NCBI GenBank assembly: GCA_000002435.2
Contig: CM018791.1
Source of the DNA: Giardia intestinalis
Lineage: Eukaryota
Reading direction: 5' to 3' (one strand)
Length of the DNA stretch: 64,000 bases
The notes beneath the pieces are model-generated. The model saw nothing but the letters and a program-made list of their open reading frames with translations, was not told where the DNA came from and made no database searches. The stretch's first letter is position 1. Each line of letters begins with the position of its first letter. A program made the translations under genes and the position numbers. Below are positions 3,978-21,811 of this stretch, one piece after another.

Positions 3978-4592
3978 CTATATCTTTCGCTGTATAAGGT
4001 AACGCTTAATAGTCTTAAGTTGCCAAACAGTGACGCCAATGTACGTTACTATGCATAAAAGGTTTGTAACAACAACACTACGCCTCGTGGAGGAGATCTG
4101 AGATTCAAACCGGTCAAAGTTGGTGTGTATTACTTCTGCCTGCTGGTCAATTGCCTTCGCCTTCGCTAAGAGCCTAGTTACAGTTTGCTCCTCCTGTCTG
4201 CGCTTTGCATCCACCGAGTCATTGGCTGGGGCGTGGCTCTCTATTGAGAGACTCATGCGACCGACCGACTTGTCCATCTTTGCAGAGCCGCCACCAAGGC
4301 AGACCTTGTAGTCGCCTACTTGCCGGGGGCTGAAGAGAAGCTCCCCCCTGTCCGAGAGCTGAGTGTCAAAGACAACCGCGTCATAAACGTCGTATATTTG
4401 CAGTAAGACACTGCTAGTTCGCTGATTGAGCGATGTGCTCCCTTTGGCATAGAGCTCCGGGGTATTGACGGAATACAAAAGCCGAATGTCTTGATCGACA
4501 ACGGCCTTGTGCCGGAAGCAGATTACGTTAGAGTTTGTAAAGTCAAAGTACAGAGCATTGGTGGCGGTTAATAGGAACAGCAAGGAAAGCAT
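3978..4592 (-). CDS. p24/emp24 (GOLD-domain) cargo receptor family protein
   Basis: The ORF-track start at 4655 is TTG (sequence agccaa rather than agccat), and no in-frame ATG lies upstream before the stop at 4686. The first ATG is at 4592..4590 and gives the N-terminus MLSLLFLLTATNALY, which looks like a signal peptide. The protein has a lumenal domain with CF...C cysteines, a coiled-coil segment, and a single C-terminal TM with the p24-like GVTVWQLKTIKRYL motif and a short tail. Confidence 0.55.
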   Translation of the reverse strand: MLSLLFLLTATNALYFDFTNSNVICFRHKAVVDQDIRLLYSVNTPELYAKGSTSLNQRTSSVLLQIYDVYDAVVFDTQLSDRGELLFSPRQVGDYKVCLGGGSAKMDKSVGRMSLSIESHAPANDSVDAKRRQEEQTVTRLLAKAKAIDQQAEVIHTNFDRFESQISSTRRSVVVTNLLCIVTYIGVTVWQLKTIKRYLIQRKI

Positions 4593-4701
4593 ACAGTGGC
4601 TGATCGACAGCTTCAAAGCGTCAAATTGAAAAATCAAGCCAAAGTAATAAGCCAAAAAGTAATGTATAGATATTTGGTTACAGTTTTATCTGAAACTGTC
4701 C

Positions 4702-5295
4702 ATGACACCCGATGGCGAGGAAAAAGCCACTAAAGATCAAAAACCGTCTCCGCTTTGCTTAAGCAGCGATGTCTTTGTAACATTTGAGTACACGGTTAGC
4801 GGGGAGGAGCCCAGCCAACCCTGCTACACAAAGAACTCCAACCATGCTTTTTCTACCTCTCAGGATACAATAGGAGAGCTAATTGCAGATACTGTGCTTG
4901 TCAGGGGTATGCCACTTGCATCAGGAAGAATGCTAAAACAGATCCTATTGAGCTGTGTTTCTGCTATCGTTTCAGCGGACGATTATCCCGCATCCATTAG
5001 GCAAAGTCTTGTCAAGCACATCAGTGATGCTAGTGTCTCCAGTCAGGTGATTAGGAGGCGTTACATTACCTACGGTAGGGAGCATCAGAACATATTGAAA
5101 GGTCTTCTTCATAGCGCCGTGGCCTGCAGTGTCTCATATAACTTAACGACTGATCCAGCTGTGCTTTCACACATGGTAACCTACATGAACGCGCTTCTAC
5201 CCACTGGAGAGATAAAGACCATAGTCTGTGGGATCTCCAAATTTGATGAAAACGCACCTGGGTCTATGCTTAAATCCGCCTTTTTTCGTCTCTAG
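4702..5295 (+). CDS. hypothetical protein (197 aa)
   Basis: ATG verified at 4702. Clean ORF, divergent from the p24 gene across a 110-bp intergenic region. No recognisable domain. Confidence 0.5.
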   Translation: MTPDGEEKATKDQKPSPLCLSSDVFVTFEYTVSGEEPSQPCYTKNSNHAFSTSQDTIGELIADTVLVRGMPLASGRMLKQILLSCVSAIVSADDYPASIRQSLVKHISDASVSSQVIRRRYITYGREHQNILKGLLHSAVACSVSYNLTTDPAVLSHMVTYMNALLPTGEIKTIVCGISKFDENAPGSMLKSAFFRL

Positions 5296-5378
5296 GAGTT
5301 GATGCCAACAATGAGCTATGTAGGATATTATCCAATAAGCTTGTCAGTATTACAACAAACCTTACAGTAAGCGCTACA

Positions 5379-6584
5379 ATGAAACCCAGTAAGTTCTGTG
5401 ATGAGATTGCTCGCGCCTTGCGTGATTTATCGAGCAACCGAGAAATCTTGTACATGGGCTGCTTAATGCAATGGCAGAACAAGGCATTTACCATCCTCTA
5501 TGAACAGCATTTCTCTGATGTCATAGAAGTAGTCCACAAGTTGACCATGAAGATTCTGAATATGTCTGTTTCAATGAAAGAGCAGTTTCGGTCTTTCTTG
5601 GCCCAGTATGAACTTAGTGTTAAGGGCCCTTCTGTTACTGATGAATCTATCGGGTCTGATGCTTCAGGCGCTGAACCGGCTTCCAGGAAGACTTTATCAA
5701 AAGTGGATACTGAAGCAGGGCTTCGCCCCGCGTTGCGAGTGTATAGTACTGTACGTTGGACGTACTTATACATATGTATTCTCAACTTTTATGAAAATCT
5801 AGAGCGGCTCATAGCGTTCATAAGTCGGTGCCCGAATACAACCTCTGTTCTTTCAAAGCATCTTGCTACACAGCTTATTAACCTTACCTGGATTCGGCGA
5901 TTGGCGTTCCTTGCAGATATCTTCCAGCTCTGTAGGGGCCTCCGACTCCTAATGGAAGGGCCACGTATTGTACCGGGGCACGCGCTGCTGGAGATGGGCG
6001 GGCTCCGGGACGCGCTGCAGACGGTGCTCGCCGAGCTCCGGGCCGGGGTCTGGACCCGCCTCCCCCGGCTGGGTGCGCGCCTTCGGGATGGGGCCGCACT
6101 CCCTGACGAGGAGAGGAGGTCCCTTGCGGGCGCCCTGGAGGCCTTTGTCGCCGAGCTCGATGCGTGCTTGTCGGCGTACCGGCAGTGCCTTCCGCTTCTC
6201 CGGCTGACGGTGTCCCCCGTGTGTGCCCCGGCAGCGGGAGGAGCGGCGCCTCCGGAGCCATTCCCGGTTCCAGGGGTGGACCGGGACGGGTTTACCGCGG
6301 AGTATCGGGGCTTCAGCGGCGGAGAACGCGGAGACGCGCACCGGCGTTGCCTGGAAAGAATTCGCGGCATGACGTGCAACGCGGCCCGCTGGAACGCACT
6401 AGTGACCTTCTGGGCGGACCAGAGGGCAGCGTATCCGCAGACCAGCCGGGCCGCGCTCGGGCTCCTGACGGTACTCGCGACCGTCTGTGCCTCCGAAGTA
6501 TCCTCCTCCGCGCTCAAGCGGGCCCTGAGCCGGGGAGCAGGCGCCGTGCTCCTTGCGCGCCTCGACGCGCGCGTGGGCGAGTAA
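5379..6584 (+). CDS. hypothetical protein (401 aa), mosaic: a normal-composition N-terminal half fused in frame to a GC-rich repeat-derived C-terminal half
   Basis: ATG verified at 5379. Codon third-position GC changes abruptly at nt 5975, which is exactly where the large inverted repeat begins. The C-terminal 202 codons (Ala/Arg/Leu/Gly/Pro-rich, GC3 about 90%) are also present in the second repeat copy with a different 12-aa N-terminus (ORF 21154..21798). Confidence 0.45.
   Translation: MKPSKFCDEIARALRDLSSNREILYMGCLMQWQNKAFTILYEQHFSDVIEVVHKLTMKILNMSVSMKEQFRSFLAQYELSVKGPSVTDESIGSDASGAEPASRKTLSKVDTEAGLRPALRVYSTVRWTYLYICILNFYENLERLIAFISRCPNTTSVLSKHLATQLINLTWIRRLAFLADIFQLCRGLRLLMEGPRIVPGHALLEMGGLRDALQTVLAELRAGVWTRLPRLGARLRDGAALPDEERRSLAGALEAFVAELDACLSAYRQCLPLLRLTVSPVCAPAAGGAAPPEPFPVPGVDRDGFTAEYRGFSGGERGDAHRRCLERIRGMTCNAARWNALVTFWADQRAAYPQTSRAALGLLTVLATVCASEVSSSALKRALSRGAGAVLLARLDARVGE
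5975..6584 (+). other. compositionally anomalous GC-rich block (about 73% GC) at the outer end of the inverted repeat; strong GC3 periodicity in the + frame
   Basis: Seen directly: the flanking sequence is about 45-50% GC. Many overlapping ORFs appear on both strands, as expected for GC-rich DNA. The mirrored copy is at 21154..21763. Confidence 0.6.
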
Positions 6585-6595
6585 AGCAGGGAAAG

Positions 6596-6668
6596 TACCG
6601 ACGACGGGGCTCGAACCCGCGACCACAGGATTAAGAGTCCTGCGCTCTACCGACTGAGCTACATCGGC
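6596..6668 (-). tRNA. tRNA-Lys (anticodon CUU), 73 nt, no encoded CCA
   Basis: I folded the reverse complement by eye: GCCGATG acceptor arm, TA, GCTC/GAGC D-arm, CAGGA-CTCTTAA-TCCTG anticodon arm (U33, CTT at 34-36, A37), a 5-nt variable loop, GCGGG-TTCGAGC-CCCGT T-arm, and CGTCGGT closing the acceptor stem with two G-U pairs plus discriminator A. It is very close to the metazoan tRNA-Lys-CTT sequence. Confidence 0.85.
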
Positions 6669-6732
6669 GCGACCGCACGCAGAATATCAGAATGACTTGT
6701 AATTTTGCTAGCAGTGTGTTGGTATTTGATCA

Positions 6733-9159
6733 ATGGCCGTTCTGCCGTCCGGCTACACGTACCTCCAGACCCTCGAGGACGGCGTCCTTCGCAAGCTCTA
6801 TACGGCCGCCCGGCACGATGGCGTCTCCTGCCTTTGTGAGGAGGTCTTTGTTGGACCTCCCCCTGCGCCTTCTGCCTCTTCGCTTCGCGCCTGTCCTGCC
6901 CTGATCGCTCGCCTCGATTCGCCCTTCCTTGGAAAATACATTCTTGTCCAGCCAGATAATCAGCGCAGGTCTGTCTTTCTTCTTTCCCAGCATGTCCAGG
7001 ATTTCTCTCTCTTCACTCTCTTTACGGCCCACACAGGCTCGCGACCATACACTCCAGAGGATGATATATGGCAAATTTTATATGGCGCACTTCAAGGACT
7101 GGCCTATCTTCATAGCCCTTTGGCAAAGCCTGTTCTTGTTCACGGTGCAATTTCACCCACCTCGGTCTATGTGTCTAGAGATGGAGCTGGGCTTTTGCGG
7201 TCACTGTGGAGCGTTCGAGAAAGTGGATCCCCCTTTACGGGCGACGCATACTCACCCCTCACCCCATACGTAGCCCCCGAGGTCCTGAAATCTCAGGCCA
7301 TAACTACCAAGGCAGACGTTTGGGCTCTTGGTTGTATAATTTATGAACTATGTGTGCAAAAGCAACTCTTTGCTGCGGCTAGCGAAGAAGAGATGGTCGC
7401 GCGTATCCTCACACCCGTGTCTGTCACCTTGCCGCCACAGTACTCGCGCGACTTAGTGACCGTTCTTCGCGCCATGCTTGAACAAGACCCGTTCCAACGG
7501 CCAGGAGCTGTTGTTCTTCTCGGACACCCTCGCTTCGAGCACTTCGATAATTCCCTCCCTGAGGATCACGAGGCTACCGCTGACTGCAAAGATCCTACCC
7601 TTTCTCGTGTCAACACAGTGCTAGCAGACAGCACAATGTCCTTTAGTTCCGTTGGCAGCTCTGTGGCCCCACTTCTTCCCGAATCTAATAGCCCCCTTTC
7701 CCAGGCAATTGCCGCCGGCAACAAGACTGCATTTACGAAGGCGCTAGGGGCATGGAAAGGGAAAGCAGACTCGAACGGCTACTCCAGCCTAATGTACGCC
7801 ATAGTCTATCAGAATACACCGATGGCTAAGCTTCTATTGAAATCGGATGCAGGGCTCCAGGACCGCACTGGCCGAAGCGCACTTATGTACGCATCTTCCT
7901 ATGACAAACTTGAACTCGTTCAAGAACTGATCCGGCGCGAGGGACGCCTTCGCGACAGGGCTGGGCGAACGGCGCTAATGCATGCAGCAGCGTCTGACTC
8001 CTTGCTGTCTATACGAGCCCTCATTCCCCTCGAAGCAGGGCTTGCCGATAATGAAGGCTCAACTGCCTTGATGATCGCCATTAAGAGCGGCGCATATCGT
8101 GCCGTGAGCATGCTTTATATTCAGGAAGCCAGATATCAATCTATGCTGGGAAAGACCGCCCTTATGCTTGCTGCACAACTTGATTGCGGCGTAGCCATCA
8201 ATCTGCTTGCAGAGGAGGAGACATACCTTGAGGACTCGTATGGGATGACTGCATCCCAATATGCCGAGCTGGCTGGTAACCAAGTTGGCGAGCTAGCACT
8301 TCGAGAACATGATCAAACCATAGTAACCGGGAAAACAGTTGCGGGGAGGCTGAGCTCTCTTCCTAAGCTGGGAATCAAAGGCGGGGCCCTGACCCTCGAG
8401 GAACGAGAACGCGTCAATATGCTGTCGGGATCACTTCCCAGAGATGAGCAAGGCAATACGTCGTTAATGCTGGCTATTCTGGAAGGCGATCGAATCTCTG
8501 CCGAAAGCTATCTTCCGAGCCAGATGGGCTTTAGAAATGCTGATTCAGAAACAGCCCTTATGCTTTGCGCAAAGAAGAATCTATCTGGTATCGCTGCTCT
8601 TCTCCTTGCTGCAGAGTCGGGACTGCGCGTTGGGCTTAGCTCTTCTGTGCCCAAGGAGCGAGTTGGCATGACTGCGCTCATGCATGCAGCAGAAGCAAAT
8701 GCAGTAGAGGTGTGCAAGGTCCTTTTGACAGCAGAGGCCGGGTCAGTGCGAAAGGACGGCAAGACGGCCCTTATTCTTGCCGCTATGGCTGACGCAAAAG
8801 ACGCTGCCCTTGTCTTGGGAGCTTGTGATAAAGAGGCAGGCCAGCATGACACAAACGGCTTCACAGCTCTGATGGGGGCTGTGCAGCATAGAAATGTAGA
8901 TCTTGCCAAGCTTCTATTGAAGAAAGAAGCCGGCTTTCAGAAAAACGACGGCACTGCTGCGATACACATTGCAGTGTTTCTCGAAGATGTCGCCTTGGTA
9001 AAGCTGCTCTTTTCTTATGAAAAGGACTTGCAGCTAGCAGACGGCAGAACTGCCCAGACGATTGCAATTGCTCTTAACAATCCTGCATTGCAGGCTGTCT
9101 TCGATGAACCCACAAAGAAGCGCTCCAAAAGCCGGGCACAAGGGAGCGCCAAGCGATAG
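6733..9159 (+). CDS. NEK-like protein kinase-fold protein (predicted pseudokinase) with C-terminal ankyrin-repeat array, 808 aa; copy A
   Basis: ATG verified at 6733. The N-terminal 265 aa have a kinase fold (APE-like TPYVAPEVL, subdomain IX ADVWALGCIIYEL), but no recognisable G-loop, HRD Asp or DFG (VHGAISPTSV / SLWS). The rest carries about 14 ankyrin repeats (TALMxAA..G). This architecture is typical of Giardia NEK/ankyrin proteins. Confidence 0.8.
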   Translation: MAVLPSGYTYLQTLEDGVLRKLYTAARHDGVSCLCEEVFVGPPPAPSASSLRACPALIARLDSPFLGKYILVQPDNQRRSVFLLSQHVQDFSLFTLFTAHTGSRPYTPEDDIWQILYGALQGLAYLHSPLAKPVLVHGAISPTSVYVSRDGAGLLRSLWSVRESGSPFTGDAYSPLTPYVAPEVLKSQAITTKADVWALGCIIYELCVQKQLFAAASEEEMVARILTPVSVTLPPQYSRDLVTVLRAMLEQDPFQRPGAVVLLGHPRFEHFDNSLPEDHEATADCKDPTLSRVNTVLADSTMSFSSVGSSVAPLLPESNSPLSQAIAAGNKTAFTKALGAWKGKADSNGYSSLMYAIVYQNTPMAKLLLKSDAGLQDRTGRSALMYASSYDKLELVQELIRREGRLRDRAGRTALMHAAASDSLLSIRALIPLEAGLADNEGSTALMIAIKSGAYRAVSMLYIQEARYQSMLGKTALMLAAQLDCGVAINLLAEEETYLEDSYGMTASQYAELAGNQVGELALREHDQTIVTGKTVAGRLSSLPKLGIKGGALTLEERERVNMLSGSLPRDEQGNTSLMLAILEGDRISAESYLPSQMGFRNADSETALMLCAKKNLSGIAALLLAAESGLRVGLSSSVPKERVGMTALMHAAEANAVEVCKVLLTAEAGSVRKDGKTALILAAMADAKDAALVLGACDKEAGQHDTNGFTALMGAVQHRNVDLAKLLLKKEAGFQKNDGTAAIHIAVFLEDVALVKLLFSYEKDLQLADGRTAQTIAIALNNPALQAVFDEPTKKRSKSRAQGSAKR

Positions 9160-11097
9160 CCGAATTGCAGCCTCACAGAATGTGACACACTGGCCTGTGG
9201 TTACTAGCTTTGGGAGGCCTGGCCTATGGGCTTCAATTGCCATACTTATCCACCAAGAATGAACACTGCGAAGGTGCCTACTCATTATTTGACAATTCAG
9301 GTTTTACACATGTTTCCTTGTGCATTATTGGGAGGAAGCATGAAAAATCCACATTCTTCGAAGGTAAAGCTCCTGTCCCCTACATCTATTTTCTAATAAA
9401 GCATTCAACTGCACAGACTAAGTGCTGCAGCTATCTCATGGTATTGAAAACCGTATATACAGGCTTTATCCTCAGACCTGCTAGAGTTGATTGGGGGGCC
9501 ATTAGCCTACTAATTTGACATGAACAGAAGGAGTAATGTGCCTATTCGGTCGACATTGAGGGTTAAACCACACCAATGACTGACTATGTGCCACACGGAT
9601 CACTCCCAGTAAGCATTTGTTACAAACTAGAGAGTCCTGCACGGTCAATTTACAGCACATCTTTCCATCATAACCTTCAAAGTAGGCGTCCATTCTGTTA
9701 TCACATAGCCTGTTGAGCCATGAGTGACACCTGCAACGTTTCTGCTTAACAGATTAAATGTTCTAAGCTTGTTCTTTGAATAATAAGTATAGCTGTCCCG
9801 TATTATTTACACAGAGGTGAAGACACGATACACTTATGCGCCAGGATCGCATTAAATTAGACCTTGATTGATAGCTATATATTCTACTGATTGCTCGCGC
9901 TCTTGGATTGCAGAATGAATAAAAGGTAGCTAGATTGCATGCATTACTATTGTAGAGTAAGTTATTTTAGGACGGATCCTGCAATCCTACTGGTGTCCAT
10001 CTCCCTAGATATCTGCATCTGGAGAGGACTGTTTCCTGGCTGCCTGTGACAAGCATAAAGGAAACGTGTCTTGAAGAAAAGCACATTCACAGGGTCGTAT
10101 ATTAATGCGGCTCAGCATGTCCATCAAGATTGGCATCGGATGGACTTCTGACAGCTGAGTACAGGAGTGCCTAGTTGCGCAAACTGTGGACCCGCAGTTC
10201 CTAAGCATACTAAGTAGCATCTCTTCAGTTCTGTGGCCTAAGTCAAGCGTTCTGCAGATAGACTCCTAAGTTAATGTGCTTCTGGCTATGATTTTCAGCT
10301 CTGGAGGTTCTGTCCCGTCCGCAGACTACTACTTCTAGATACAGTCTTTCTGCATCGGGAGTGAGGGGCTCTGTGGCCTCTTACTCTCCCTTCATACAAA
10401 TACAGACAGGTCCTTGCAGAAGAGACCCAGAGCTCTTGTAGCATTTACGCTGTGGCTACGCACCGTACCTCCCCACGCTTCTCTCGGATACTCACGGCGG
10501 CTGTATCCCTGGTTGTCCACGCTACGTTGCCCCACATGAGAAGTCCATTAGCGAAGCGCTTGTGGTCACCGAAGCTGCCTGCTCAATATCGGTTAGCGGC
10601 CTTCACCGGTATTTCACGTCCACATATGCAAGGGGCACCTGCGTCTCAGCGCCGTCCCTCAGGCACTGTAGCAGGCGAGGTCTGACTTCGCTGCATTGGC
10701 GGTTTCGTGATATGCATCCAGCTACCCGATGTTTGGCAATGGTCTGTGCCAATTCCTGAGCAACTGGTAACAAATCCTTACCTGTTTAGAGTCATACCTG
10801 TGAAGGGTGTCCCTTACATCACGGAAGACCCTAGCCGCCGGTCGACGCTCGGCGCCAGATGCCTCCTGCGGGCCACGAGGAGCGAATCTGCATGGGTCTT
10901 CCCACATGCTGCTAGCGCCGGGCCGCCCGCCCATTGCGCGCATGACCAACGCCTCGGCGCCAGACCCGCAACGCAGGAGGAGTGTGTGTTCATTCACTCT
11001 TTGCAAACGAGCAAGATATTCAGATCCAGCCCCAACAATTCTTAAGTAATGAGCTGCGACGTCTAAGCTACAGCCGTATTCAATGATTTACAGAAAA

Positions 11098-14000
11098 TTA
11101 GAGCTGAACCATGGATGGTTGTCTGGAACCATTTAGTAGAGGTGCAGTAGAGTACATAGACGCAGTAAGACTAGAATTGCGAGTGAGTTGCGGCTTAGGA
11201 AGCCCGCGACCAGGCTTCCGCGGGGCACGCTCCCTCAGTACACCGCTCTTCCTGGGCCGTATCACGAACCACCAGACGAGGAAGCCGGCCACCGCAGCGA
11301 GGACGAGGAGAACGACGACCACGATCGCAGCTGTTGTGCCGGCAGACGATTTGTTAGATGGAGCAGGGACTCCGCAGACGAAGTCGCTTGTGAGAGAGAA
11401 GCCTTCATCGCATATGCAAGTGGGCTTTACGCCGTTCTCAGACACGCACCTGCCGTTGCCCCCGCAGATCGTCACGGTGCCGTCGGTGCCGCGCTGGATG
11501 CACTGGCTGCTGATGCAGAGCCCCTCGGAGACGGTCTCGTAGCCGCTTCTGCAGCTGCACAAGCCCCCGTCGGAGAGCTGGCAGTCGCCGTTCCCCCCGC
11601 ACAGCGTTCCACTGGAAACGCAGGCCGATGGGTAGCAGAGGGTCCCGTGGAGGGTCCAGCCTTGTCTGCAGCTGCAGATCGCAGAGGACCCTTCACCAGT
11701 ACACTCTCCTCCGCCGTTGCAGACTTTCCCGTCCTTGAGACACCTTGTGGGGATGCAATCAGTCTTGACCAGAGTATAGTCTTTTGCACACAGGCAGCCG
11801 TAGGTGTCGCCGGTCTTCTCGCAGGCGCCGAAGCCGCTACAAAGCTTGTTGTCTGACGAGACGCAGCTGCTATGCACACAACCATTTTGACCAGGGAGGT
11901 TCTTAAAATTGGGGGCCTGGCAGTTGCATGTTCCTGTGTCACCGGTCTCCGTGCACGTCCCACCACCATCACAAACTTCTGAAAGAATGCTCTCGTGCGC
12001 CCCGAAGCACTCCTTGACGAAGCACTGGCCGGTCTTCTTGTCTGTACGGTACCTGCTGTTGTCGCACCTGCACATTCCTGTACCAGTGGTGGCTTCAACG
12101 CATGTTCCACGGTTATTACATATCTTAGTAATGTCATCAGCGTGATCTCTCGGCATGCATTCTCTATATACGCAGACACTTGATCCAATGAGAATTGTTC
12201 CAGAATTGCAACTACATTCCCCAGTGGCCTCGCCGTTGTCATTGCACGTACCCATACCATAGCACGTTTTTTCTGTCTGATCGTATGGATCCGTCCAGAC
12301 GCACCTGGACTTCCGGCACTTCTTGCTAGCACTGTCAACGACGAAGCTCGAGTTGACGCAGACGCAGTTGAAGCTACTGCCACCAAACTGACAAGTTCCT
12401 GCATCAGTATTTTCTTCCATACTACAGCTATCTTTTGGACAGTTGCTAAGATAACATCGCTTATCTGTGTGTTCCAGGTACCCATCATTGCAAGCCTTGC
12501 ATTGAGGACCTTCGTACCCAGGGTAGCACTTACATGTCTTTTCTTCTATAGAGCAAGTTCCCCTTCCGCTGCATATCATGGTTGTGTCTGTCTCCGAGAC
12601 AGCACATACCTCCGGGATACACACATAATTTCCTAATATGCCTTTGACTGTTTTGTAGCCAGACTCACAGCTGCAAGAATATTCTACGGTATGATCCCCC
12701 TTGCATGTTCCGTGACCAGAACACTCGACATTCCTGAAGGTGTTTCCAGGCAGGACGTCACTGAGACACACTCTCTTGATGCACTTTTTATTCTCCAGCT
12801 GGACAATGTCAGATCGCTCTATACACTTGCAGTAGGGTTCGGATGACTGAGTGGTATTCAGAATGCACATTCCAAACTGTCTTCCGCCGCATGTAGTATT
12901 CATTTTGGTGTTATCTAGTTTTGTAATCTCAAATATGCAAGCCTTTGGCAGACAGAACCCATCAAGTTCTTCGTACCCGTCAGGCCTCGGGTCCTTGCAC
13001 TTACAAGCGTAGTCTCGACGATCGCCGTGCGACGCTATCTTTGTGCACACACCAATCGTGTCACCGCCACATACGGATTCAGTGAGCCTTCCGTTACTGT
13101 CTGTAGCATTGATGAAGCAATTGAGACCAACACAGACCTTATCCACCAACTTGGTCCCTAGATTGCATATGCATCCATCAGGTCCACACCTACCCGCGCC
13201 TCCACAGATCACCGGTACGTCCTTGTCTTTACTAGAAATACACTTTTCTAGCACGCATGTCTTCCTCAGCTCGCCGCTTGCGTCTCTAAGTGTATACGCA
13301 TTCGCACCATTAGTACACGTGCATTGCTTGTCCTTCAATAAACCGTTGGCACTGCATGTTCCCAGCCCGTTACACTCTATGGCGGCGTCGTTCGCAGACG
13401 CCCTATACATGCACTTGCTCGGGACACACGTGTCTCTATTTCCATCTTGATTTCTTTTATCACTCAGTTCGTAGCCCTCGGAGCAGACGCAGCCGTAGCG
13501 GTTATCATCTCCCTTCACGCACGAAGCCAAAGAGTCACCTCCGCAATACTTATCCCCAGACATGCAGCTTTGGTGAACGCAAAGCCCATTAAAAGACTTG
13601 TATGAAAAAGCACACTTGCACGAGTACGTGTTTCCATTAGAATCTTGTGTGCAACTCCCAACGGTGCCGTCGTAGACCTTGCATTCGACGTACTTAAGTT
13701 CTCCATTGTGGATCACCTTTCCGGCGCACCCGGGGTGAGTGCAGTAACCACCAAAGGCCTCAAAACCATCCTTACACTCACATCCATATCGGCCGGTCAG
13801 CTGGTTGTACGCGCAGACTCCCTTCCCAGAGCAGACGTGGCGATCTAACGTTAGCTTCCTTGCATCGGCTGCCGTCACGCCCACAGGCAGGCAGTCGTAG
13901 CTGTAGCACATGTCACCGATCCTCAGGAAGCCCGGGTTGCAGGTGCAGGACTCATTTTCGTTTATGTAGCCAGCTCCGGGGCCGCCGCATAGACCTCTTG

Positions 14001-16179
14001 CTAGCTTAGTCTGTGGATTCGCATTCTTGCTTTTTAAAATGCACGTCTTGTTGTATGTAACATAGTCCCCAGTGCAATTACACTGCCACGTCGTGTCCCG
14101 GCCGACGGTGCAGTGGAGTTCGTGACTGCCCAGCGCAGCGCAGTACTTAGGTGCTCCTGGGCCGGCGAGCTTTTTATCAAGCTTGCACGCATTGGTGACG
14201 CACGCCTTTAAACTTTGGTCCCACGTAGCATCTGGACCGCAATCGCATTCATATCCTTCGTTACCATCCTTCTTTTTGACACAGTCTCCCACACCACCAC
14301 AGTAATTGTACCACATATGATAAATAGATCTACCGTCGTGACAGTCGGTATGCATGCAGGTTGCATTGTTTTCCCCAAAGTGTACAAGATGAAAGCCAGT
14401 TGGGCACACAGTGCACGTTTCAGGTAGATTGGAGCCTTCAGAAGGCTTAGCACAGGTTGGCATTCGATCGTCCTGAAGACTATCTGTCAGCCCCTCTAGG
14501 AACCCACAAAAGAACCTTCTTGTCTTATCTATCTTACTGATAAATACACATCCAGGTTTAGCAGAGAAGGTGCCGTTGTAGGCTGAAACGTTCCCATCAC
14601 TGGAGCCTTTAGGGACGCATGTGATGAACGGATTGCTAGGATCTCCATAAGTGGTGTACGTGCCTGTGTTCCCGCAGATATCCTGAGCAGTAGCCGTGCG
14701 CAGACTGGGCTGTGGATCCGGTGGTTGTTGTTGCACAATGCACTTCTTTGCAATGCATTTCTTGTCAATCACTTGCGCATTTTGTTGATTACATTCTGCG
14801 CACTTAGCTCCTGTGTAGATAGGCGAACACTGGCACGTCATCGTATAAGGAGCCTCAGCACTAACGACAATGCGTCCATGATCACTGCAAACCGTGGCAG
14901 GGATATCCACCAGACTGCTCAAGATGCAGCGCCCTGGAGCGATGTAGGTATAGTCCTGATCACAAGTGCATTGTATATTTCGTAGATCGTCCGTCTTGCA
15001 CGTGCCGTGCCCCGAGCAGACCTTCCCAAGTTCCTCGTCCATGCACGCGGGGGACGTGCACTCTCCGTCAACGGCAATGAGCATGTCCGGGCAGCGGCAG
15101 TGGTACTCGCCATCGAACTTGACACATGTTCCTCCGTTCTTGCATGATTCTCGCTTGTCTGAGGTGAGGCATCCCACTGGAACGCACTTGCCATTTATCT
15201 TAGCAGACTTGTCAGTGCAAGTATCGCAGAGGTCGCCCGTGGCAAGTCCCCGGCAATCGCACTTATAGCCAGCGCCGTCACGCACACAGGCGCCCACTCC
15301 GCCACAGATCTTCGAGTTGGAGCTATCGGTGCAGGTCGGATGCGTGCAGAACTCACCAACCTGGACTGCATTAGAATCGCAAACACACCTGAAGGTGCCG
15401 GTATTTCCCTCATCTGTGCAGTTCCCAAAGCCCCCGCAGACGACCGGGGACCCGTCGATCGTGGCCACGCACTCTGTCCTGACGCACTTGTGTCCAACGC
15501 GTGTATATCCCGTCTCACAGGCACAACGGTAGTGGTATGATTCGCGATTGAGGCCTACGTCGAGGACACAGTTACCATGTCCTGAGCACACAGTGCCGTC
15601 AGGATCCTGGCAAGCCCGTGGGTTACAAGTGGGGAGATTGTCCTGTGAGGGAGTCTTAGCATCAATTGCGTTGGCGTCGTCGCACGACTGGCAGAGACTC
15701 CCGCGGTAGATCGGGTAGCAGTCGCACGCGTAGTCGTCAGCACTCAGCCCGGCCAGCCCGGGGTCCTTCAGGAGGCAGCGGCCGCGGCCGTTGCAGGGAG
15801 GCTTCGTTGCCTCCTGTCCTGAGAGGTCACCGGTGTTGAAGCAGCTCTTCGGCAGGCACTCGCCCTCGTAGGACACGAAGCCATCGGGGCAGGGGTCGCA
15901 CGAGTACGCCCCCGCGTAGTAGGTGCACTTGTTCGACTCTGTGCACTCCGTCCCGTTCACGAGGCAAGCGTAGTTGACGGCCCTGTCTGCGGGTGTCTGC
16001 CCACTGGTAGTTACCCTGCGGAACCCTGCACGGGGAGCATCGCACGCAGCCCCCGCCCAGCCCCGCCTGCACTGGCAGAAGTATGCTCCGTCCCCGTAGG
16101 TGCAATTTCCGTGGACGCACTCGGGGCCTGTTCCGCATGCACTGGCGAGGAATGCAATAGCATACAGGAGAATCAGCAT
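11098..16179 (-). CDS. High-cysteine membrane protein (HCMP; VSP-like, EGF/CXXC-rich), 1693 aa
   Basis: ATG verified at 16179..16177. The N-terminus is a signal peptide (MLILLYAIAFLASA). Hundreds of Cys in CXXC/CXC spacing with GxCxxC-type repeats. A single C-terminal TM (IVVVVLLVLAAVAGFLVWWFVI) is followed by a roughly 45-aa cytoplasmic tail, which distinguishes it from VSPs ending in CRGKA. Confidence 0.85.
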   Translation of the reverse strand: MLILLYAIAFLASACGTGPECVHGNCTYGDGAYFCQCRRGWAGAACDAPRAGFRRVTTSGQTPADRAVNYACLVNGTECTESNKCTYYAGAYSCDPCPDGFVSYEGECLPKSCFNTGDLSGQEATKPPCNGRGRCLLKDPGLAGLSADDYACDCYPIYRGSLCQSCDDANAIDAKTPSQDNLPTCNPRACQDPDGTVCSGHGNCVLDVGLNRESYHYRCACETGYTRVGHKCVRTECVATIDGSPVVCGGFGNCTDEGNTGTFRCVCDSNAVQVGEFCTHPTCTDSSNSKICGGVGACVRDGAGYKCDCRGLATGDLCDTCTDKSAKINGKCVPVGCLTSDKRESCKNGGTCVKFDGEYHCRCPDMLIAVDGECTSPACMDEELGKVCSGHGTCKTDDLRNIQCTCDQDYTYIAPGRCILSSLVDIPATVCSDHGRIVVSAEAPYTMTCQCSPIYTGAKCAECNQQNAQVIDKKCIAKKCIVQQQPPDPQPSLRTATAQDICGNTGTYTTYGDPSNPFITCVPKGSSDGNVSAYNGTFSAKPGCVFISKIDKTRRFFCGFLEGLTDSLQDDRMPTCAKPSEGSNLPETCTVCPTGFHLVHFGENNATCMHTDCHDGRSIYHMWYNYCGGVGDCVKKKDGNEGYECDCGPDATWDQSLKACVTNACKLDKKLAGPGAPKYCAALGSHELHCTVGRDTTWQCNCTGDYVTYNKTCILKSKNANPQTKLARGLCGGPGAGYINENESCTCNPGFLRIGDMCYSYDCLPVGVTAADARKLTLDRHVCSGKGVCAYNQLTGRYGCECKDGFEAFGGYCTHPGCAGKVIHNGELKYVECKVYDGTVGSCTQDSNGNTYSCKCAFSYKSFNGLCVHQSCMSGDKYCGGDSLASCVKGDDNRYGCVCSEGYELSDKRNQDGNRDTCVPSKCMYRASANDAAIECNGLGTCSANGLLKDKQCTCTNGANAYTLRDASGELRKTCVLEKCISSKDKDVPVICGGAGRCGPDGCICNLGTKLVDKVCVGLNCFINATDSNGRLTESVCGGDTIGVCTKIASHGDRRDYACKCKDPRPDGYEELDGFCLPKACIFEITKLDNTKMNTTCGGRQFGMCILNTTQSSEPYCKCIERSDIVQLENKKCIKRVCLSDVLPGNTFRNVECSGHGTCKGDHTVEYSCSCESGYKTVKGILGNYVCIPEVCAVSETDTTMICSGRGTCSIEEKTCKCYPGYEGPQCKACNDGYLEHTDKRCYLSNCPKDSCSMEENTDAGTCQFGGSSFNCVCVNSSFVVDSASKKCRKSRCVWTDPYDQTEKTCYGMGTCNDNGEATGECSCNSGTILIGSSVCVYRECMPRDHADDITKICNNRGTCVEATTGTGMCRCDNSRYRTDKKTGQCFVKECFGAHESILSEVCDGGGTCTETGDTGTCNCQAPNFKNLPGQNGCVHSSCVSSDNKLCSGFGACEKTGDTYGCLCAKDYTLVKTDCIPTRCLKDGKVCNGGGECTGEGSSAICSCRQGWTLHGTLCYPSACVSSGTLCGGNGDCQLSDGGLCSCRSGYETVSEGLCISSQCIQRGTDGTVTICGGNGRCVSENGVKPTCICDEGFSLTSDFVCGVPAPSNKSSAGTTAAIVVVVLLVLAAVAGFLVWWFVIRPRKSGVLRERAPRKPGRGLPKPQLTRNSSLTASMYSTAPLLNGSRQPSMVQL

Positions 16180-18578
16180 ACAGTGATTTTAAAGATGGCT
16201 CCGGGTTATTATGTGCTAGCATACCATGAATATAAGAAGGAAACTTGTAAGTTTGTCATTTACAAACGAAAGTATACTGTTTCTGAGCTGTCCTCAGATG
16301 CTGCGTATAGCAGGATTAAATCGATACGTCACAAGGTTGTAGTTATTTACACGTCTTTTAAATATTGCTTCATTTCAACGAGGCGTTGCTTCAGTCTTCG
16401 TAGACATAGAGCACTATATGGTTGCACTCTTGATACTGAAGGCTAAAAGCGCTGAATTTCGAGGATTGCTCAGACTGATGAAGTAGATTGACACGAGTAC
16501 CAGGTCATTGTAACGTCGATAGCTATTGCCGTCATGCAAGGAGACGTTATGTCACGAAAAGGCCACGACTCAGATATTCTCGGTAGAGTAAAGAATTGCT
16601 CTTACAAATGAAGAATAAGAGGCGTGAAGGGACAGACAGTGGAGCAGAGTACAAAACGAAAAGGCAAGCTAATTGCTTTCTTTTAGTGGCGTATACATCC
16701 ATGAGACAGACCTCGCGGGCCCATTGCAGTCGATCTCCGTGATCAACGGGAGAGTCTGTGGCCCTTGTGCGGGTCTGGCGCCGAGGCGTTGGTCATGCGC
16801 GCAATGGGCGGGCGGCCCGGCGCTAGCAGCATGTGGGAAGACCCATGCAGATTCGCTCCTCGTGGCCCGCAGGAGGCATCTGGCGCCGAGCGTCGACCGG
16901 CGGCTAGGGTCTTCCGTGATGTAAGGGACACCCTTCACAGGTATGACTCTAAACAGGTAAGGATTTGTTACCAGTTGCTCAGGAATTGGCACAGACCATT
17001 GCCAAACATCGGGTAGCTGGATGCATATCACGAAACCGCCAATGCAGCGAAGTCAGACCTCGCCTGCTACAGTGCCTGAGGGACGGCGCTGAGACGCAGG
17101 TGCCCCTTGCATATGTGGACGTGAAATACCGGTGAAGGCCGCTAACCGATATTGAGCAGGCAGCTTCGGTGACCACAAGCGCTTCGCTAATGGACTTCTC
17201 ATGTGGGGCAACGTAGCGTGGACAACCAGGGATACAGCCGCCGTGAGTATCCGAGAGAAGCGTGGGGAGGTACGGTGCGTAGCCACAGCGTAAATGCTAC
17301 AAGAGCTCTGGGTCTCTTCTGCAAGGACCTGTCTGTATTTGTATGAAGGGAGAGTAAGAGGCCACAGAGCCCCTCACTCCCGATGCAGAAAGACTGTATC
17401 TAGAAGTAGTAGTCTGCGGACGGGACAGAACCTCCAGAGCTGAAAATCATAGCCAGAAGCACATTAACTTAGGAGTCTATCTGCAGAACGCTTGACTTAG
17501 GCCACAGAACTGAAGAGATGCTACTTAGTATGCTTAGGAACTGCGGGTCCACAGTTTGCGCAACTAGGCACTCCTGTACTCAGCTGTCAGAAGTCCATCC
17601 GATGCCAATCTTGATGGACATGCTGAGCCGCATTAATATACGACCCTGTGAATGTGCTTTTCTTCAAGACACGTTTCCTTTATGCTTGTCACAGGCAGCC
17701 AGGAAACAGTCCTCTCCAGATGCAGATATCTAGGGAGATGGACACCAGTAGGATTGCAGGATCCGTCCTAAAATAACTTACTCTACAATAGTAATGCATG
17801 CAATCTAGCTACCTTTTATTCATTCTGCAATCCAAGAGCGCGAGCAATCAGTAGAATATATAGCTATCAATCAAGGTCTAATTTAATGCGATCCTGGCGC
17901 ATAAGTGTATCGTGTCTTCACCTCTGTGTAAATAATACGGGACAGCTATACTTATTATTCAAAGAACAAGCTTAGAACATTTAATCTGTTAAGCAGAAAC
18001 GTTGCAGGTGTCACTCATGGCTCAACAGGCTATGTGATAACAGAATGGACGCCTACTTTGAAGGTTATGATGGAAAGATGTGCTGTAAATTGACCGTGCA
18101 GGACTCTCTAGTTTGTAACAAATGCTTACTGGGAGTGATCCGTGTGGCACATAGTCAGTCATTGGTGTGGTTTAACCCTCAATGTCGACCGAATAGGCAC
18201 ATTACTCCTTCTGTTCATGTCAAATTAGTAGGCTAATGGCCCCCCAATCAACTCTAGCAGGTCTGAGGATAAAGCCTGTATATACGGTTTTCAATACCAT
18301 GAGATAGCTGCAGCACTTAGTCTGTGCAGTTGAATGCTTTATTAGAAAATAGATGTAGGGGACAGGAGCTTTACCTTCGAAGAATGTGGATTTTTCATGC
18401 TTCCTCCCAATAATGCACAAGGAAACATGTGTAAAACCTGAATTGTCAAATAATGAGTAGGCACCTTCGCAGTGTTCATTCTTGGTGGATAAGTATGGCA
18501 ATTGAAGCCCATAGGCCAGGCCTCCCAAAGCTAGTAACCACAGGCCAGTGTGTCACATTCTGTGAGGCTGCAATTCGG

Positions 18579-21005
18579 CTATCGCTTGGCGCTCCCTTGT
18601 GCCCGGCTTTTGGAGCGCTTCTTTGTGGGTTCATCGAAGACAGCCTGCAATGCAGGATTGTTAAGAGCAATTGCAATCGTCTGGGCAGTTCTGCCGTCTG
18701 CTAGCTGCAAGTCCTTTTCATAAGAAAAGAGCAGCTTTACCAAGGCGACATCTTCGAGAAACACTGCAATGTGTATCGCAGCAGTGCCGTCGTTTTTCTG
18801 AAAGCCGGCTTCTTTCTTCAATAGAAGCTTGGCAAGATCTACATTTCTATGCTGCACAGCCCCCATCAGAGCTGTGAAGCCGTTTGTGTCATGCTGGCCT
18901 GCCTCTTTATCACAAGCTCCCAAGACAAGGGCAGCGTCTTTTGCGTCAGCCATAGCGGCAAGAATAAGGGCCGTCTTGCCGTCCTTTCGCACTGACCCGG
19001 CCTCTGCTGTCAAAAGGACCTTGCACACCTCTACTGCATTTGCTTCTGCTGCATGCATGAGCGCAGTCATGCCAACTCGCTCCTTGGGCACAGAAGAGCT
19101 AAGCCCAACGCGCAGTCCCGACTCTGCAGCAAGGAGAAGAGCAGCGATACCAGATAGATTCTTCTTTGCGCAAAGCATAAGGGCTGTTTCTGAATCAGCA
19201 TTTCTAAAGCCCATCTGGCTCGGAAGATAGCTTTCGGCAGAGATTCGATCGCCTTCCAGAATAGCCAGCATTAACGACGTATTGCCTTGCTCATCTCTGG
19301 GAAGTGATCCCGACAGCATATTGACGCGTTCTCGTTCCTCGAGGGTCAGGGCCCCGCCTTTGATTCCCAGCTTAGGAAGAGAGCTCAGCCTCCCCGCAAC
19401 TGTTTTCCCGGTTACTATGGTTTGATCATGTTCTCGAAGTGCTAGCTCGCCAACTTGGTTACCAGCCAGCTCGGCATATTGGGATGCAGTCATCCCATAC
19501 GAGTCCTCAAGGTATGTCTCCTCCTCTGCAAGCAGATTGATGGCTACGCCGCAATCAAGTTGTGCAGCAAGCATAAGGGCGGTCTTTCCCAGCATAGATT
19601 GATATCTGGCTTCCTGAATATAAAGCATGCTCACGGCACGATATGCGCCGCTCTTAATGGCGATCATCAAGGCAGTTGAGCCTTCATTATCGGCAAGCCC
19701 TGCTTCGAGGGGAATGAGGGCTCGTATAGACAGCAAGGAGTCAGACGCTGCTGCATGCATTAGCGCCGTTCGCCCAGCCCTGTCGCGAAGGCGTCCCTCG
19801 CGCCGGATCAGTTCTTGAACGAGTTCAAGTTTGTCATAGGAAGATGCGTACATAAGTGCGCTTCGGCCAGTGCGGTCCTGGAGCCCTGCATCCGATTTCA
19901 ATAGAAGCTTAGCCATCGGTGTATTCTGATAGACTATGGCGTACATTAGGCTGGAGTAGCCGTTCGAGTCTGCTTTCCCTTTCCATGCCCCTAGCGCCTT
20001 CGTAAATGCAGTCTTGTTGCCGGCGGCAATTGCCTGGGAAAGGGGGCTATTAGATTCGGGAAGAAGTGGGGCCACAGAGCTGCCAACGGAACTAAAGGAC
20101 ATTGTGCTGTCTGCTAGCACTGTGTTGACACGAGAAAGGGTAGGATCTTTGCAGTCAGCGGTAGCCTCGTGATCCTCAGGGAGGGAATTATCGAAGTGCT
20201 CGAAGCGAGGGTGTCCGAGAAGAACAACAGCTCCTGGCCGTTGGAACGGGTCTTGTTCAAGCATGGCGCGAAGAACGGTCACTAAGTCGCGCGAGTACTG
20301 TGGCGGCAAGGTGACAGACACGGGTGTGAGGATACGCGCGACCATCTCTTCTTCGCTAGCCGCAGCAAAGAGTTGCTTTTGCACACATAGTTCATAAATT
20401 ATACAACCAAGAGCCCAAACGTCTGCCTTGGTAGTTATGGCCTGAGATTTCAGGACCTCGGGGGCTACGTATGGGGTGAGGGGTGAGTATGCGTCGCCCG
20501 TAAAGGGGGATCCACTTTCTCGAACGCTCCACAGTGACCGCAAAAGCCCAGCTCCATCTCTAGACACATAGACCGAGGTGGGTGAAATTGCACCGTGAAC
20601 AAGAACAGGCTTTGCCAAAGGGCTATGAAGATAGGCCAGTCCTTGAAGTGCGCCATATAAAATTTGCCATATATCATCCTCTGGAGTGTATGGTCGCGAG
20701 CCTGTGTGGGCCGTAAAGAGAGTGAAGAGAGAGAAATCCTGGACATGCTGGGAAAGAAGAAAGACAGACCTGCGCTGATTATCTGGCTGGACAAGAATGT
20801 ATTTTCCAAGGAAGGGCGAATCGAGGCGAGCGATCAGGGCAGGACAGGCGCGAAGCGAAGAGGCAGAAGGCGCAGGGGGAGGTCCAACAAAGACCTCCTC
20901 ACAAAGGCAGGAGACGCCATCGTGCCGGGCGGCCGTATAGAGCTTGCGAAGGACGCCGTCCTCGAGGGTCTGGAGGTACGTGTAGCCGGACGGCAGAACG
21001 GCCAT
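18579..21005 (-). CDS. NEK-like pseudokinase with ankyrin repeats, 808 aa; copy B, identical to 6733..9159
   Basis: Translation identical to copy A in the ORF track. Confidence 0.8.
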   Translation of the reverse strand: MAVLPSGYTYLQTLEDGVLRKLYTAARHDGVSCLCEEVFVGPPPAPSASSLRACPALIARLDSPFLGKYILVQPDNQRRSVFLLSQHVQDFSLFTLFTAHTGSRPYTPEDDIWQILYGALQGLAYLHSPLAKPVLVHGAISPTSVYVSRDGAGLLRSLWSVRESGSPFTGDAYSPLTPYVAPEVLKSQAITTKADVWALGCIIYELCVQKQLFAAASEEEMVARILTPVSVTLPPQYSRDLVTVLRAMLEQDPFQRPGAVVLLGHPRFEHFDNSLPEDHEATADCKDPTLSRVNTVLADSTMSFSSVGSSVAPLLPESNSPLSQAIAAGNKTAFTKALGAWKGKADSNGYSSLMYAIVYQNTPMAKLLLKSDAGLQDRTGRSALMYASSYDKLELVQELIRREGRLRDRAGRTALMHAAASDSLLSIRALIPLEAGLADNEGSTALMIAIKSGAYRAVSMLYIQEARYQSMLGKTALMLAAQLDCGVAINLLAEEETYLEDSYGMTASQYAELAGNQVGELALREHDQTIVTGKTVAGRLSSLPKLGIKGGALTLEERERVNMLSGSLPRDEQGNTSLMLAILEGDRISAESYLPSQMGFRNADSETALMLCAKKNLSGIAALLLAAESGLRVGLSSSVPKERVGMTALMHAAEANAVEVCKVLLTAEAGSVRKDGKTALILAAMADAKDAALVLGACDKEAGQHDTNGFTALMGAVQHRNVDLAKLLLKKEAGFQKNDGTAAIHIAVFLEDVALVKLLFSYEKDLQLADGRTAQTIAIALNNPALQAVFDEPTKKRSKSRAQGSAKR

Positions 21006-21069
21006 TGATCAAATACCAACACACTGCTAGCAAAATTACAAGTCATTCTGATATTCTGCGTGCGGTCGC

Positions 21070-21142
21070 GCCGATGTAGCTCAGTCGGTAGAGCGCAGGA
21101 CTCTTAATCCTGTGGTCGCGGGTTCGAGCCCCGTCGTCGGTA
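21070..21142 (+). tRNA. tRNA-Lys (anticodon CUU), second copy inside the right repeat arm
   Basis: Sequence GCCGATGTAGCTCAGTCGGTAGAGCGCAGGACTCTTAATCCTGTGGTCGCGGGTTCGAGCCCCGTCGTCGGTA. Cloverleaf as described for the left copy. Confidence 0.85.
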
Positions 21143-21153
21143 CTTTCCCTGCT

Positions 21154-21798
21154 TTACTCGCCCACGCGCGCGTCGAGGCGCGCAAGGAGCACGGCGCCTG
21201 CTCCCCGGCTCAGGGCCCGCTTGAGCGCGGAGGAGGATACTTCGGAGGCACAGACGGTCGCGAGTACCGTCAGGAGCCCGAGCGCGGCCCGGCTGGTCTG
21301 CGGATACGCTGCCCTCTGGTCCGCCCAGAAGGTCACTAGTGCGTTCCAGCGGGCCGCGTTGCACGTCATGCCGCGAATTCTTTCCAGGCAACGCCGGTGC
21401 GCGTCTCCGCGTTCTCCGCCGCTGAAGCCCCGATACTCCGCGGTAAACCCGTCCCGGTCCACCCCTGGAACCGGGAATGGCTCCGGAGGCGCCGCTCCTC
21501 CCGCTGCCGGGGCACACACGGGGGACACCGTCAGCCGGAGAAGCGGAAGGCACTGCCGGTACGCCGACAAGCACGCATCGAGCTCGGCGACAAAGGCCTC
21601 CAGGGCGCCCGCAAGGGACCTCCTCTCCTCGTCAGGGAGTGCGGCCCCATCCCGAAGGCGCGCACCCAGCCGGGGGAGGCGGGTCCAGACCCCGGCCCGG
21701 AGCTCGGCGAGCACCGTCTGCAGCGCGTCCCGGAGCCCGCCCATCTCCAGCAGCGCGTGCCCCCTGTGTGCAATGGGCAACATCGTAAGGTGCAACAT
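21154..21798 (-). CDS. GC-rich ORF (214 aa): second copy of the repeat-borne GC-rich coding block with its own ATG; protein of unknown function, or a pseudogene fragment
   Basis: ATG verified (cat at 21796..21798), 12 codons outside the repeat boundary. It lies 13 bp downstream of the stop of the ankyrin gene 21811..22527. Residues 13-214 are identical to residues 200-401 of ORF 5379..6584. Confidence 0.4.
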   Translation of the reverse strand: MLHLTMLPIAHRGHALLEMGGLRDALQTVLAELRAGVWTRLPRLGARLRDGAALPDEERRSLAGALEAFVAELDACLSAYRQCLPLLRLTVSPVCAPAAGGAAPPEPFPVPGVDRDGFTAEYRGFSGGERGDAHRRCLERIRGMTCNAARWNALVTFWADQRAAYPQTSRAALGLLTVLATVCASEVSSSALKRALSRGAGAVLLARLDARVGE

Positions 21799-21804
21799 AT
21801 CACC

Positions 21805-21811
21805 GTTTACT
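21805..21811 (-). terminator. Giardia-type polyadenylation signal AGTAAAC overlapping the TAA stop of the ankyrin gene
   Basis: Minus-strand sequence gcaTAAGTAAACggtg. It matches the AGTRAAY consensus described for Giardia. Confidence 0.5.

Follow-up and report, generated by a model that had tools for sequence, protein, structure and literature searches.

The window analysed here is a stretch of 64,000 nucleotides (nt) of contig CM018791.1 (assembly GCA_000002435.2), from the assemblage A reference WB (WB C6) of Giardia intestinalis, as exact matches of its proteins confirm. Two neighbouring open reading frames (ORFs) of the plus strand lie towards its left end. ORF1 (GL50803_0015769, 4702-5295) encodes 197 amino acids (aa) and is an exact match to KAE8302675.1, and the second ORF (GL50803_0022133, 5379-6584), annotated as hypothetical, encodes 401 aa and is an exact match to KAE8302676.1. 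The last 202 codons of the 401-aa ORF are a block rich in guanine and cytosine (GC) at 5975-6584 on the plus strand, which is also the outermost 610 nt of the left arm of an inverted repeat (5975-10970 / 16768-21763). As the original prediction, made from the letters alone, had stated, these 202 codons are shared with a 214-aa ORF on the minus strand of the right arm (21154-21798), where they follow a leader of 12 codons with its own ATG at 21798. The comparisons presented below indicate that GL50803_15769 and GL50803_22133 are two halves of one gene of ~626 aa derived from a Buster-type hAT transposase (ZBED5/ZBED8/FAM200-like), of which ORF1 would be the N-terminal part and the 401-aa ORF the middle and C-terminal parts. 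We hold this structural reading, a hAT-derived gene that runs into an old palindrome, with high confidence. The explanation as a whole, in which the structural reading carries the weight, we regard as probable.

A word-indexed protein search returned one 95%-identical 401-aa protein and GLP15_4100 of the assemblage E isolate P15. GLP15_4100 is a single ORF of 511+ aa, partial since its contig ends, which runs from the 197-aa ORF through the linker into the 401-aa ORF, as far as residue 276, and crosses the 5975 junction at 80% identity. Alignment of WB, P15 and L002 (a contig of a 97%-identical assemblage A lineage) places the difference in a run of T at 5281-5286 on the plus strand. This run is T6 in WB and likewise shorter in every assemblage A relative, one T fewer than the T7 of P15, and the gene is thereby split into two ORFs in assemblage A. 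All assemblage A cluster members of ORF1 end in ...SAFFRL*, and upstream of the 401-aa ORF its frame stays open only as far as the T6 run. Because the linker is conserved at the protein level, the ancestral state is taken to be one ORF of ~626 aa. The GC step recurs at the corresponding position in P15 and in the 97%-identical lineage. The original prediction would have counted it as a refutation if the whole 401-aa protein, with its GC-rich C-terminus, were a conserved single gene in other diplomonads. This is nearly what was found, as both the gene and the GC step are present in assemblage E, but that is another Giardia assemblage and not another diplomonad genus. A -1 shift at the T6 run (5281-5286) would restore the frame of the hAT-derived gene. 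That slippage, transcriptional or ribosomal, might yield some full-length protein at this run is pure speculation.

The relationship to hAT transposases is seen along most of the gene. The Pfam family PF05699 (Dimer_Tnp_hAT, the C-terminal hAT dimerisation domain) matches residues 341-385 of the 401-aa ORF; the score of 24.1 bits exceeds the gathering cut-off of 21.4 (E = 3.1e-5). When 1.84 billion representative proteins were searched exhaustively with a profile, a single distant relative came up, P0042, a protein of 619 aa (E = 3e-5), and its match, to residues 70-286, extends across the junction at residue 199/200. P0042 contains FAM200-ZBED5 RNase-like, DUF4371 and FAM200-GTF2IRD2-like domains. 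The names given to its relatives are ZBED5-, ZBED8-, FAM200- and SCAND3-like, a set which we take to be the Buster clade of hAT elements with its domesticated derivatives. The P15 protein matches P0042 by BLASTP at 1e-13, while hhalign gives the Giardia alignment a probability of 94.9% against P0042 and of 95.6% (E = 1.3e-8, 409 columns) against a 20-sequence Buster (ZBED5/FAM200-like) profile. In the latter alignment columns 99-603 of the 627 Giardia columns face profile columns 151-576 of 649. It is colinear through the frameshift site and the 5975 junction, ORF1 aligns to the catalytic-core region, and the similarity covers the RNase-H-like core, the all-alpha insertion domain and the C-terminus. 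Motifs that face each other in the Giardia gene and the profile are YMGCLMQWQNKA and tHCmiHReqLA, VRW and vRWLSRG, and WIRRLAFLADIF and wl.klAYLVDIF, together with the C-terminal FW...YP...C.SE. The source of P0042 is contig L009 (Logan SRR23967709), 3,150 nt long and 42% GC, which encodes an intact 619-aa Buster-type transposase. The identity of this source might show where the Giardia gene came from.

Several points limit or qualify this reading of the gene. The single ORF of P15 hinges on the T7 run, which could be a homopolymer error, and the P15 assembly is presumably of the 454 era. The catalytic motifs D-E-s-T-D and C-T-D-G-A of the profile face YNLTTN(D) and TTNLT in Giardia, although the alignment there is of low confidence. 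The AlphaFold model of the 401-aa ORF, built on a 4-sequence alignment, was too poor to add evidence on the fold, with a mean predicted local distance difference test score of 41 and a predicted template modelling score of 0.37. The profile motif C-E-t-g-F-S faces CASEVS in Giardia, also in a low-confidence stretch. The catalytic aspartates appear from this alignment to be replaced. No BED-type zinc finger was detected, ORF1 has no Pfam match at E up to 1, and the first ~98 residues do not align to the profile. A search of solved structures by sequence, with the Giardia profile and with P0042, gave no meaningful match. No inverted repeat was found around the gene, which thus does not show the terminal inverted repeats and 8-bp target duplications of a mobile element. 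Because terminal inverted repeats are absent, the catalytic aspartates appear to be replaced and the gene abuts its neighbours, 46 nt from an emp24-family ORF (3978-4655) on one side and 10 nt from a tRNA gene on the other, it is an immobile relic or a domesticated gene and not a transposon.

The substitution pattern between WB and P15 suggests that the whole gene encodes a protein which is functional now or was so recently. The ratio of non-synonymous to synonymous divergence (dN/dS) is 0.25 in the first ORF, 0.215 in the low-GC part of the second ORF and 0.26 in the GC-rich block, with a synonymous divergence (dS) of 0.49, 0.51 and 0.34, respectively. All parts of the gene thus appear to be under similar purifying selection. 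In the block, the differences between WB and P15 at codon positions 1/2/3 number 19/14/45, with 0 indels. Within assemblage A the dN/dS ratio is ~0.68, significantly above 0.24 (P = 0.005), which is consistent with relaxed constraint after the frameshift.

The block has a GC fraction of 0.72, in good agreement with the ~73% reported for it earlier. The GC sliding-window check proposed along with that figure was run and finds the compositional discontinuity, as the highest-GC 300-nt window of the whole 64 kb starts at 5972, where the mean over the window is 0.497 with a standard deviation of 0.061. The maximum-likelihood change point over the 401-aa ORF falls at 5973, with a support interval of 2 log-likelihood units at 5921-5977 and a log-likelihood gain of 45.8, and the right edge of the block is near 6580. 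A jump exactly at 5975 had been claimed; the step itself is confirmed, but it is exact only to ~50 nt, the rise in GC beginning at ~5890, i.e. outside the repeat boundary at 5975. GC at the first, second and third codon positions (GC1/GC2/GC3) changes across the step from 0.48/0.39/0.48 to 0.76/0.59/0.81. The strong rise of GC3 therefore holds, but it falls short of the 45% to 90% put forward before, and GC3 is ~1.0 only within the first ~40 codons of the block. The share of Gly, Ala, Arg and Pro among the residues rises from 21% before the block to 45% within it.

The palindrome to which the block belongs has arms of 4,996 nt, 100% complementary to each other, and a unique spacer of 5,797 nt. 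Its right junction is found at 100% identity in L005 and L006, assemblies of independent sequencing runs, and the palindrome is therefore real and not an assembly artefact. The left arm (5975-10970) holds the block, a tRNA-Lys gene, a NEK kinase gene and 1.8 kb without long ORFs. The tRNA-Lys(CTT) gene (6595-6668, minus strand; ARAGORN and Rfam, 71.8 bits) follows the block directly, as had been noted, lying 10 nt past the stop codon of the 401-aa ORF, and it has the same position in P15, L002 and the assemblage B isolate GS. The NEK kinase gene (6733-9159) encodes 808 aa and has an ordinary GC3 of 0.52; its protein has two accession numbers in the WB assembly, one per arm. In the right arm (16768-21763) the corresponding copies are NEK at 18579-21005 on the minus strand, tRNA-Lys at 21070-21143 and the block at 21154-21763. 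The right flank of the palindrome is formed by Ankyrin repeat protein 1 (Ank1, 238 aa; 21811-22527, minus strand), which adjoins the remnant of the block in P15 and GS too. The spacer (10971-16767) holds a gene for a 1,693-aa EGF-like cysteine-rich membrane protein (11098-16179, minus strand). The GC3 of this gene is 0.74-0.85 in the first ~150 and last ~200 codons and ~0.5 mid-gene, and its GC-rich ends may be regions exchanged among paralogues. The part of the arm without long ORFs (9160-10970, and its mirror copy) has no ORF of more than 112 aa over 1.8 kb, which is unusual for the compact Giardia genome. Its divergence between WB and P15 is ~30%, as compared to 11% for the adjacent NEK gene, and it may be a decayed gene.

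The arrangement of these features indicates an inverted duplication in which a 5-kb segment, from codon 200 of the 401-aa ORF across tRNA-Lys to NEK, was placed beside the ankyrin gene. A duplication breakpoint inside a gene was one of the options offered by the original prediction, and this option was essentially correct. Comparison across isolates indicates, furthermore, that the palindrome is older than the separation of assemblages A, E and B. In P15, a single contig holds Ank1, then 775 nt that include the block and tRNA-Lys, and further NEK and the cysteine-rich spacer gene. The left-flank contig stops 230 nt into the block. The two P15 copies are 100% identical over the 205 nt that they share and to which the comparison of arm copies is limited in this isolate, whereas WB and P15 differ there by 10-16%; the arms of WB and P15 are ~81% identical. 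In the 97%-identical lineage, the contig L014, which carries the right junction, shows 99.6% identity to L002, the left copy of that lineage, and 97.6% to WB, and the 214-aa and 401-aa proteins of the lineage carry common substitutions. L002 (Logan ERR15315897) is a short-read contig colinear with 4601-11167 of the window and crosses both left-arm ends unbroken. L002 and L014 come from two samples of one lineage, of which L014 carries the right junction, so that either the isolate of L002 is without the duplication or the assembler took one path.

In assemblage B, four independent assemblies stop at the same point, ~160 nt beyond the emp24-like gene (EMP24), and their last 30-55 nt, the extent to which arm copies could be compared in B, are the sequence found 206 nt after Ank1 in GS. 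This overlap leads us to conclude that the palindrome exists in B. The hAT-derived gene is almost wholly deleted there, with ~10 codons from its beginning left on the left side, and the arm starts ~220 nt further inside the block. The B remnant of the block is homologous to 6194-6510 of WB (local score 137 against 32 +/- 4.4 for shuffles); it has many indels and no ORF, and it is 61% identical to WB with a GC content of 71.7%. The dS of Ank1 between WB and GS, i.e. between A and B, is 1.18, so arms left unconverted would be saturated with differences. The divergence of NEK between WB and GS (proportion of non-synonymous differences 0.45) was discarded on account of frame errors in the GS draft contig, and Ank1 was used instead. 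As judged from these comparisons, the only reasonable reading is that the arms evolve in concert and that arm-to-arm gene conversion keeps homogenising them.

The right copy of the block differs from the left copy in its context. The 12-codon leader of the 214-aa ORF comes from the 3' flank of the ankyrin gene. Its ATG had been placed 13 bp past the ankyrin stop; it does lie just after the stop, at a measured distance of 12 nt. The right junction of P15 (L004 10718-10770, aligned to 21731-21810 of the window) lacks 33 nt, equal to the 11 codons GHALLEMGGLR, which the right copy of WB and the left copies of both isolates contain. The boundary of the palindrome has thus moved by an in-frame amount between assemblages A and E. 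Taken together, the comparisons indicate that the left context is the ancestral gene, and that the 214-aa right copy is probably a truncated by-product which gained its ATG accidentally in WB. Instead, the 214-aa ORF could be a new functional gene, a stand-alone hAT dimerisation-domain protein made by the duplication. It does start with an in-frame ATG and has stayed intact both in WB and in the 97%-identical lineage, and the block reading frame is intact in the P15 right copy as well. Such intactness is expected anyway in an arm that is continually copied from or to the left copy, the P15 right copy has no in-frame ATG (a nearby ATG is out of frame), and the assemblage B remnant has no ORF. 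The 214-aa ORF is also unannotated in the WB reference at the National Center for Biotechnology Information (NCBI) and is present only as gene calls in Logan assemblies. A new functional gene is therefore improbable in our view. Detection of a peptide with MLHLTMLPIAHR would support such a gene.

The original prediction had regarded the block as a GC-rich domain, possibly of foreign origin, fused to two different N-termini. A laterally acquired high-GC domain joined to native Giardia sequence would agree with the strong GC3 periodicity and with a protein rich in Ala, Arg, Gly and Pro. However, the N- and C-terminal parts share one origin, as the Buster-type homology is colinear across the junction, and neither the word-indexed search nor the 1.84 billion representatives contain a relative from a GC-rich organism, the one distant relative being that on the 42% GC contig. 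Moreover, synonymous sites are saturated since the A/B split, as seen from the dS of Ank1, and an inherited composition would have been erased. We consider a foreign origin very improbable. Still less credible, and hardly worth entertaining, is the notion that the block is rDNA-like, subtelomere-like, retroelement-derived or random GC-rich DNA with a chance ORF. Giardia ribosomal DNA (rDNA) is described as very GC-rich (PMC10123126), but Rfam finds only the tRNA here. The reverse-transcriptase remnant of the window (56938-58152) is also very GC-rich, but BLASTN and TBLASTX of the block against the window match only the block itself and its copy, and the block has no similarity to that remnant or to anything else in the window. 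Long ORFs do arise by chance in GC-rich DNA, and in the block the other frames and the other strand have five overlapping ORFs of 60 aa or more (e.g. 5789-6517, minus strand). These are treated as chance products of the GC-rich sequence, because the substitution pattern fits the plus frame. For the plus frame itself, the hAT dimerisation-domain match in Pfam, the dN/dS of 0.26 and the excess of differences at third positions all mark it as coding, and the earlier view of the block as genuine coding sequence was correct.

What made this part of the gene GC-rich is a separate question. We tentatively propose that the GC-richness is a local property of the arm end and came from biased gene conversion. 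GC-biased repair during arm-to-arm conversion, if concentrated near the arm end and the tRNA gene, would raise GC, and since conversion stops at the limit of homology, a composition step would form inside one protein domain at the boundary. In keeping with this, the change point falls on the repeat boundary in all the contexts that were compared, namely both sides in WB and the right side in P15 and in B. At the inner end of the main palindrome the GC of the inside 150 nt is 0.71, in the top 1.3% of 150-nt windows, and at the outer end of the second palindrome of the window (described below) it is 0.66, in the top 3.6%; the flanks of these two arm ends are at 0.43-0.52, so that they are GC-rich on the inside only. 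GC-rich arm ends look like a general effect. Because the B remnant, non-coding and only 61% identical to WB, still keeps its 71.7% GC, we read the GC-richness as maintained locally and not inherited. It has been reported that Giardia genes in gene-conversion tracts are GC-enriched (PMC12669663). In the NEK gene of the same arm, changes polarised by parsimony number 97 from AT to GC against 68 from GC to AT, small counts that would favour a GC bias. A more specific version, in which the step follows the boundary across assemblages (at codon 200 in A, shifted inwards by 33 nt in the right copy of E and by ~220 nt in B), was made by conversion, and sequence which has left the repeat decays to ordinary GC, is possible but doubtful. 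Two other causes were rejected. Arm-wide biased conversion as the sole cause is at odds with the GC3 of NEK in the same arm, and an ancestrally GC-rich gene frozen inside the palindrome is at odds with a block dS only ~1.5x below the 0.51 outside it, as well as with an A/B split that is saturating and yet has left the non-coding B remnant at 72% GC.

Some of the evidence speaks against conversion as the cause. The fourth arm end is only mildly GC-rich (0.59). Changes in the block, polarised by parsimony and small in number, run from AT to GC against GC to AT as 6 vs 11 between WB and the 97%-identical lineage with P15 as outgroup, and as 11 vs 24 between A and E with B as outgroup. As the block shows no current gain of GC, the force, if real, must be mainly past or weaker than needed for 72% GC. 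At the edges of homology, moreover, one would usually expect conversion between repeats to be less frequent, not more. In B, the local match around TGTTGGAGATG that would identify the 206-nt right flank as a decayed low-GC part of the block is marginal (z ~3-4), and the global alignment of this flank scored no better than random segments of the window. The main rival to biased conversion is that a GC island beside the tRNA gene, a hotspot of recombination or replication stalling, came first and that the duplication broke at its edge, for instance by fork stalling and template switching. Here the net flux from GC to AT in A and E would suggest an old and decaying GC-richness, and GC does rise ~50-80 nt outside the boundary, with a change point at 5935 almost as likely as that at 5973. 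The block abuts the tRNA gene in all assemblages, and in the P15 left copy the 33-36 nt outside the P15 repeat itself are still GC-rich. But a pre-existing island needs an unrelated sharp step inside one protein domain and then a breakpoint within ~50 nt of it, and in B, where the boundary lies ~220 nt further in, the GC-rich stretch again starts at the boundary. Two other arm ends, with no tRNA gene nearby, are likewise GC-rich on the inside only. We therefore think an earlier island less likely than biased conversion at the arm ends, which we tentatively favour.

The second palindrome of the window is also perfect (53901-56319 / 59109-61527), with arms of 2,419 nt and a spacer at 56320-59108. 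Each arm has one 673-aa VSP gene, the two pointing away from each other, and a GC-rich reverse-transcriptase remnant (57564-58205, Pfam RVT_1) lies inside the spacer. This palindrome matches the inverted VSP pairs known from the WB reference genome. Apart from the block, three further arm ends of the two palindromes (10810-10960, 53870-53990 and 56210-56320, with their mirror copies) have last 100-160 nt at 0.59-0.71 GC as compared to 0.43-0.59 in the adjoining unique sequence. Combination of the four arm-end rank fractions by Fisher's method, calculated by hand, gives P ~4e-5 if the ends are independent.

These results give an identity to two hypothetical Giardia reference genes, GL50803_15769 and GL50803_22133. 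Purifying selection acts on the gene which they form in assemblages A and E; the gene has a frameshift in A and has been deleted from B. Among the hAT/Buster-derived genes it is a new member, and a strongly diverged one. To our knowledge, only non-long-terminal-repeat retroelements are usually listed for the Giardia genome, and a literature search found, among the papers that it covered, none naming these gene identifiers or any Giardia hAT-type gene. If the assignment is true, no hAT-derived gene, domesticated or not, would have been described in a diplomonad before. For annotation, it seems advisable to treat the 214-aa ORF as a truncated duplicate and not as a new gene. The palindrome, kept identical by conversion since before the A/B split, bears on the debate about recombination in Giardia and offers a clean case of long-term concerted evolution in this organism. 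If biased conversion at the arm ends did create the composition step, such palindromes could naturally serve to gauge mitotic recombination, as well as conversion bias, in a tetraploid protist of disputed sexuality. The GC-rich arm ends hint at a way to measure conversion bias, and their possible role as foci of GC-biased conversion is itself a testable hint.

Comparison with the Buster-clade hAT transposases and their derivatives (ZBED5, ZBED8, ZBED9/SCAND3, FAM200A/B) shows what the Giardia gene has kept and lost. Its length of ~626 aa is close to their ~600-620 aa, and the order of motifs is the same, from the two first catalytic motif regions through an H-C-x-x-H-type motif (YMGCLMQWQNKA), V-R-W and W-I-x-R-L-A-[FY]-L-x-D-I-F to the C-terminal F-W...Y-P...C-x-S-E. 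As in the vertebrate Buster derivatives, terminal repeats are lacking and purifying selection acts on the gene. In contrast, it is only ~14-25% identical to the members of the clade, no BED zinc finger was detected in it and its catalytic aspartates are seemingly replaced (YNLTTD/N, TTNLT). It also differs from them in being split by a frameshift in assemblage A, deleted in assemblage B and 72% GC in its last third.

The main palindrome belongs to a known class of duplicated regions of WB. The duplicated share of the WB genome has been given as 6.9%, with a list of inverted VSP pairs, some of which have a reverse-transcriptase remnant between them (Xu et al. 2020, PMC7000408). The second palindrome of the window (53901-56319 / 59109-61527) is exactly of that type. 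The features found for the main palindrome, namely its breakpoint within a gene, its age and its GC-rich arm ends, are apparently not described in that paper, as far as a term search of its text goes. In its behaviour the main palindrome resembles, on a 5-kb scale, the conversion-maintained palindromes of mammalian sex chromosomes. In primates, X and Y palindrome arms are reported to be kept identical by GC-biased arm-to-arm gene conversion (PMC8981503). The Giardia structure differs from these in size (~5 kb, as compared to tens to hundreds of kb in primates), in a GC excess restricted to a few hundred bases at the arm ends, NEK having a GC3 of 0.52, and in the lack of a current excess of AT-to-GC changes in the block. 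It is otherwise like them in having inverted arms around a unique spacer, an arm identity of ~100% in a structure far older than this identity implies, conservation across diverged lineages and a GC content higher in the arms than in the flanks.

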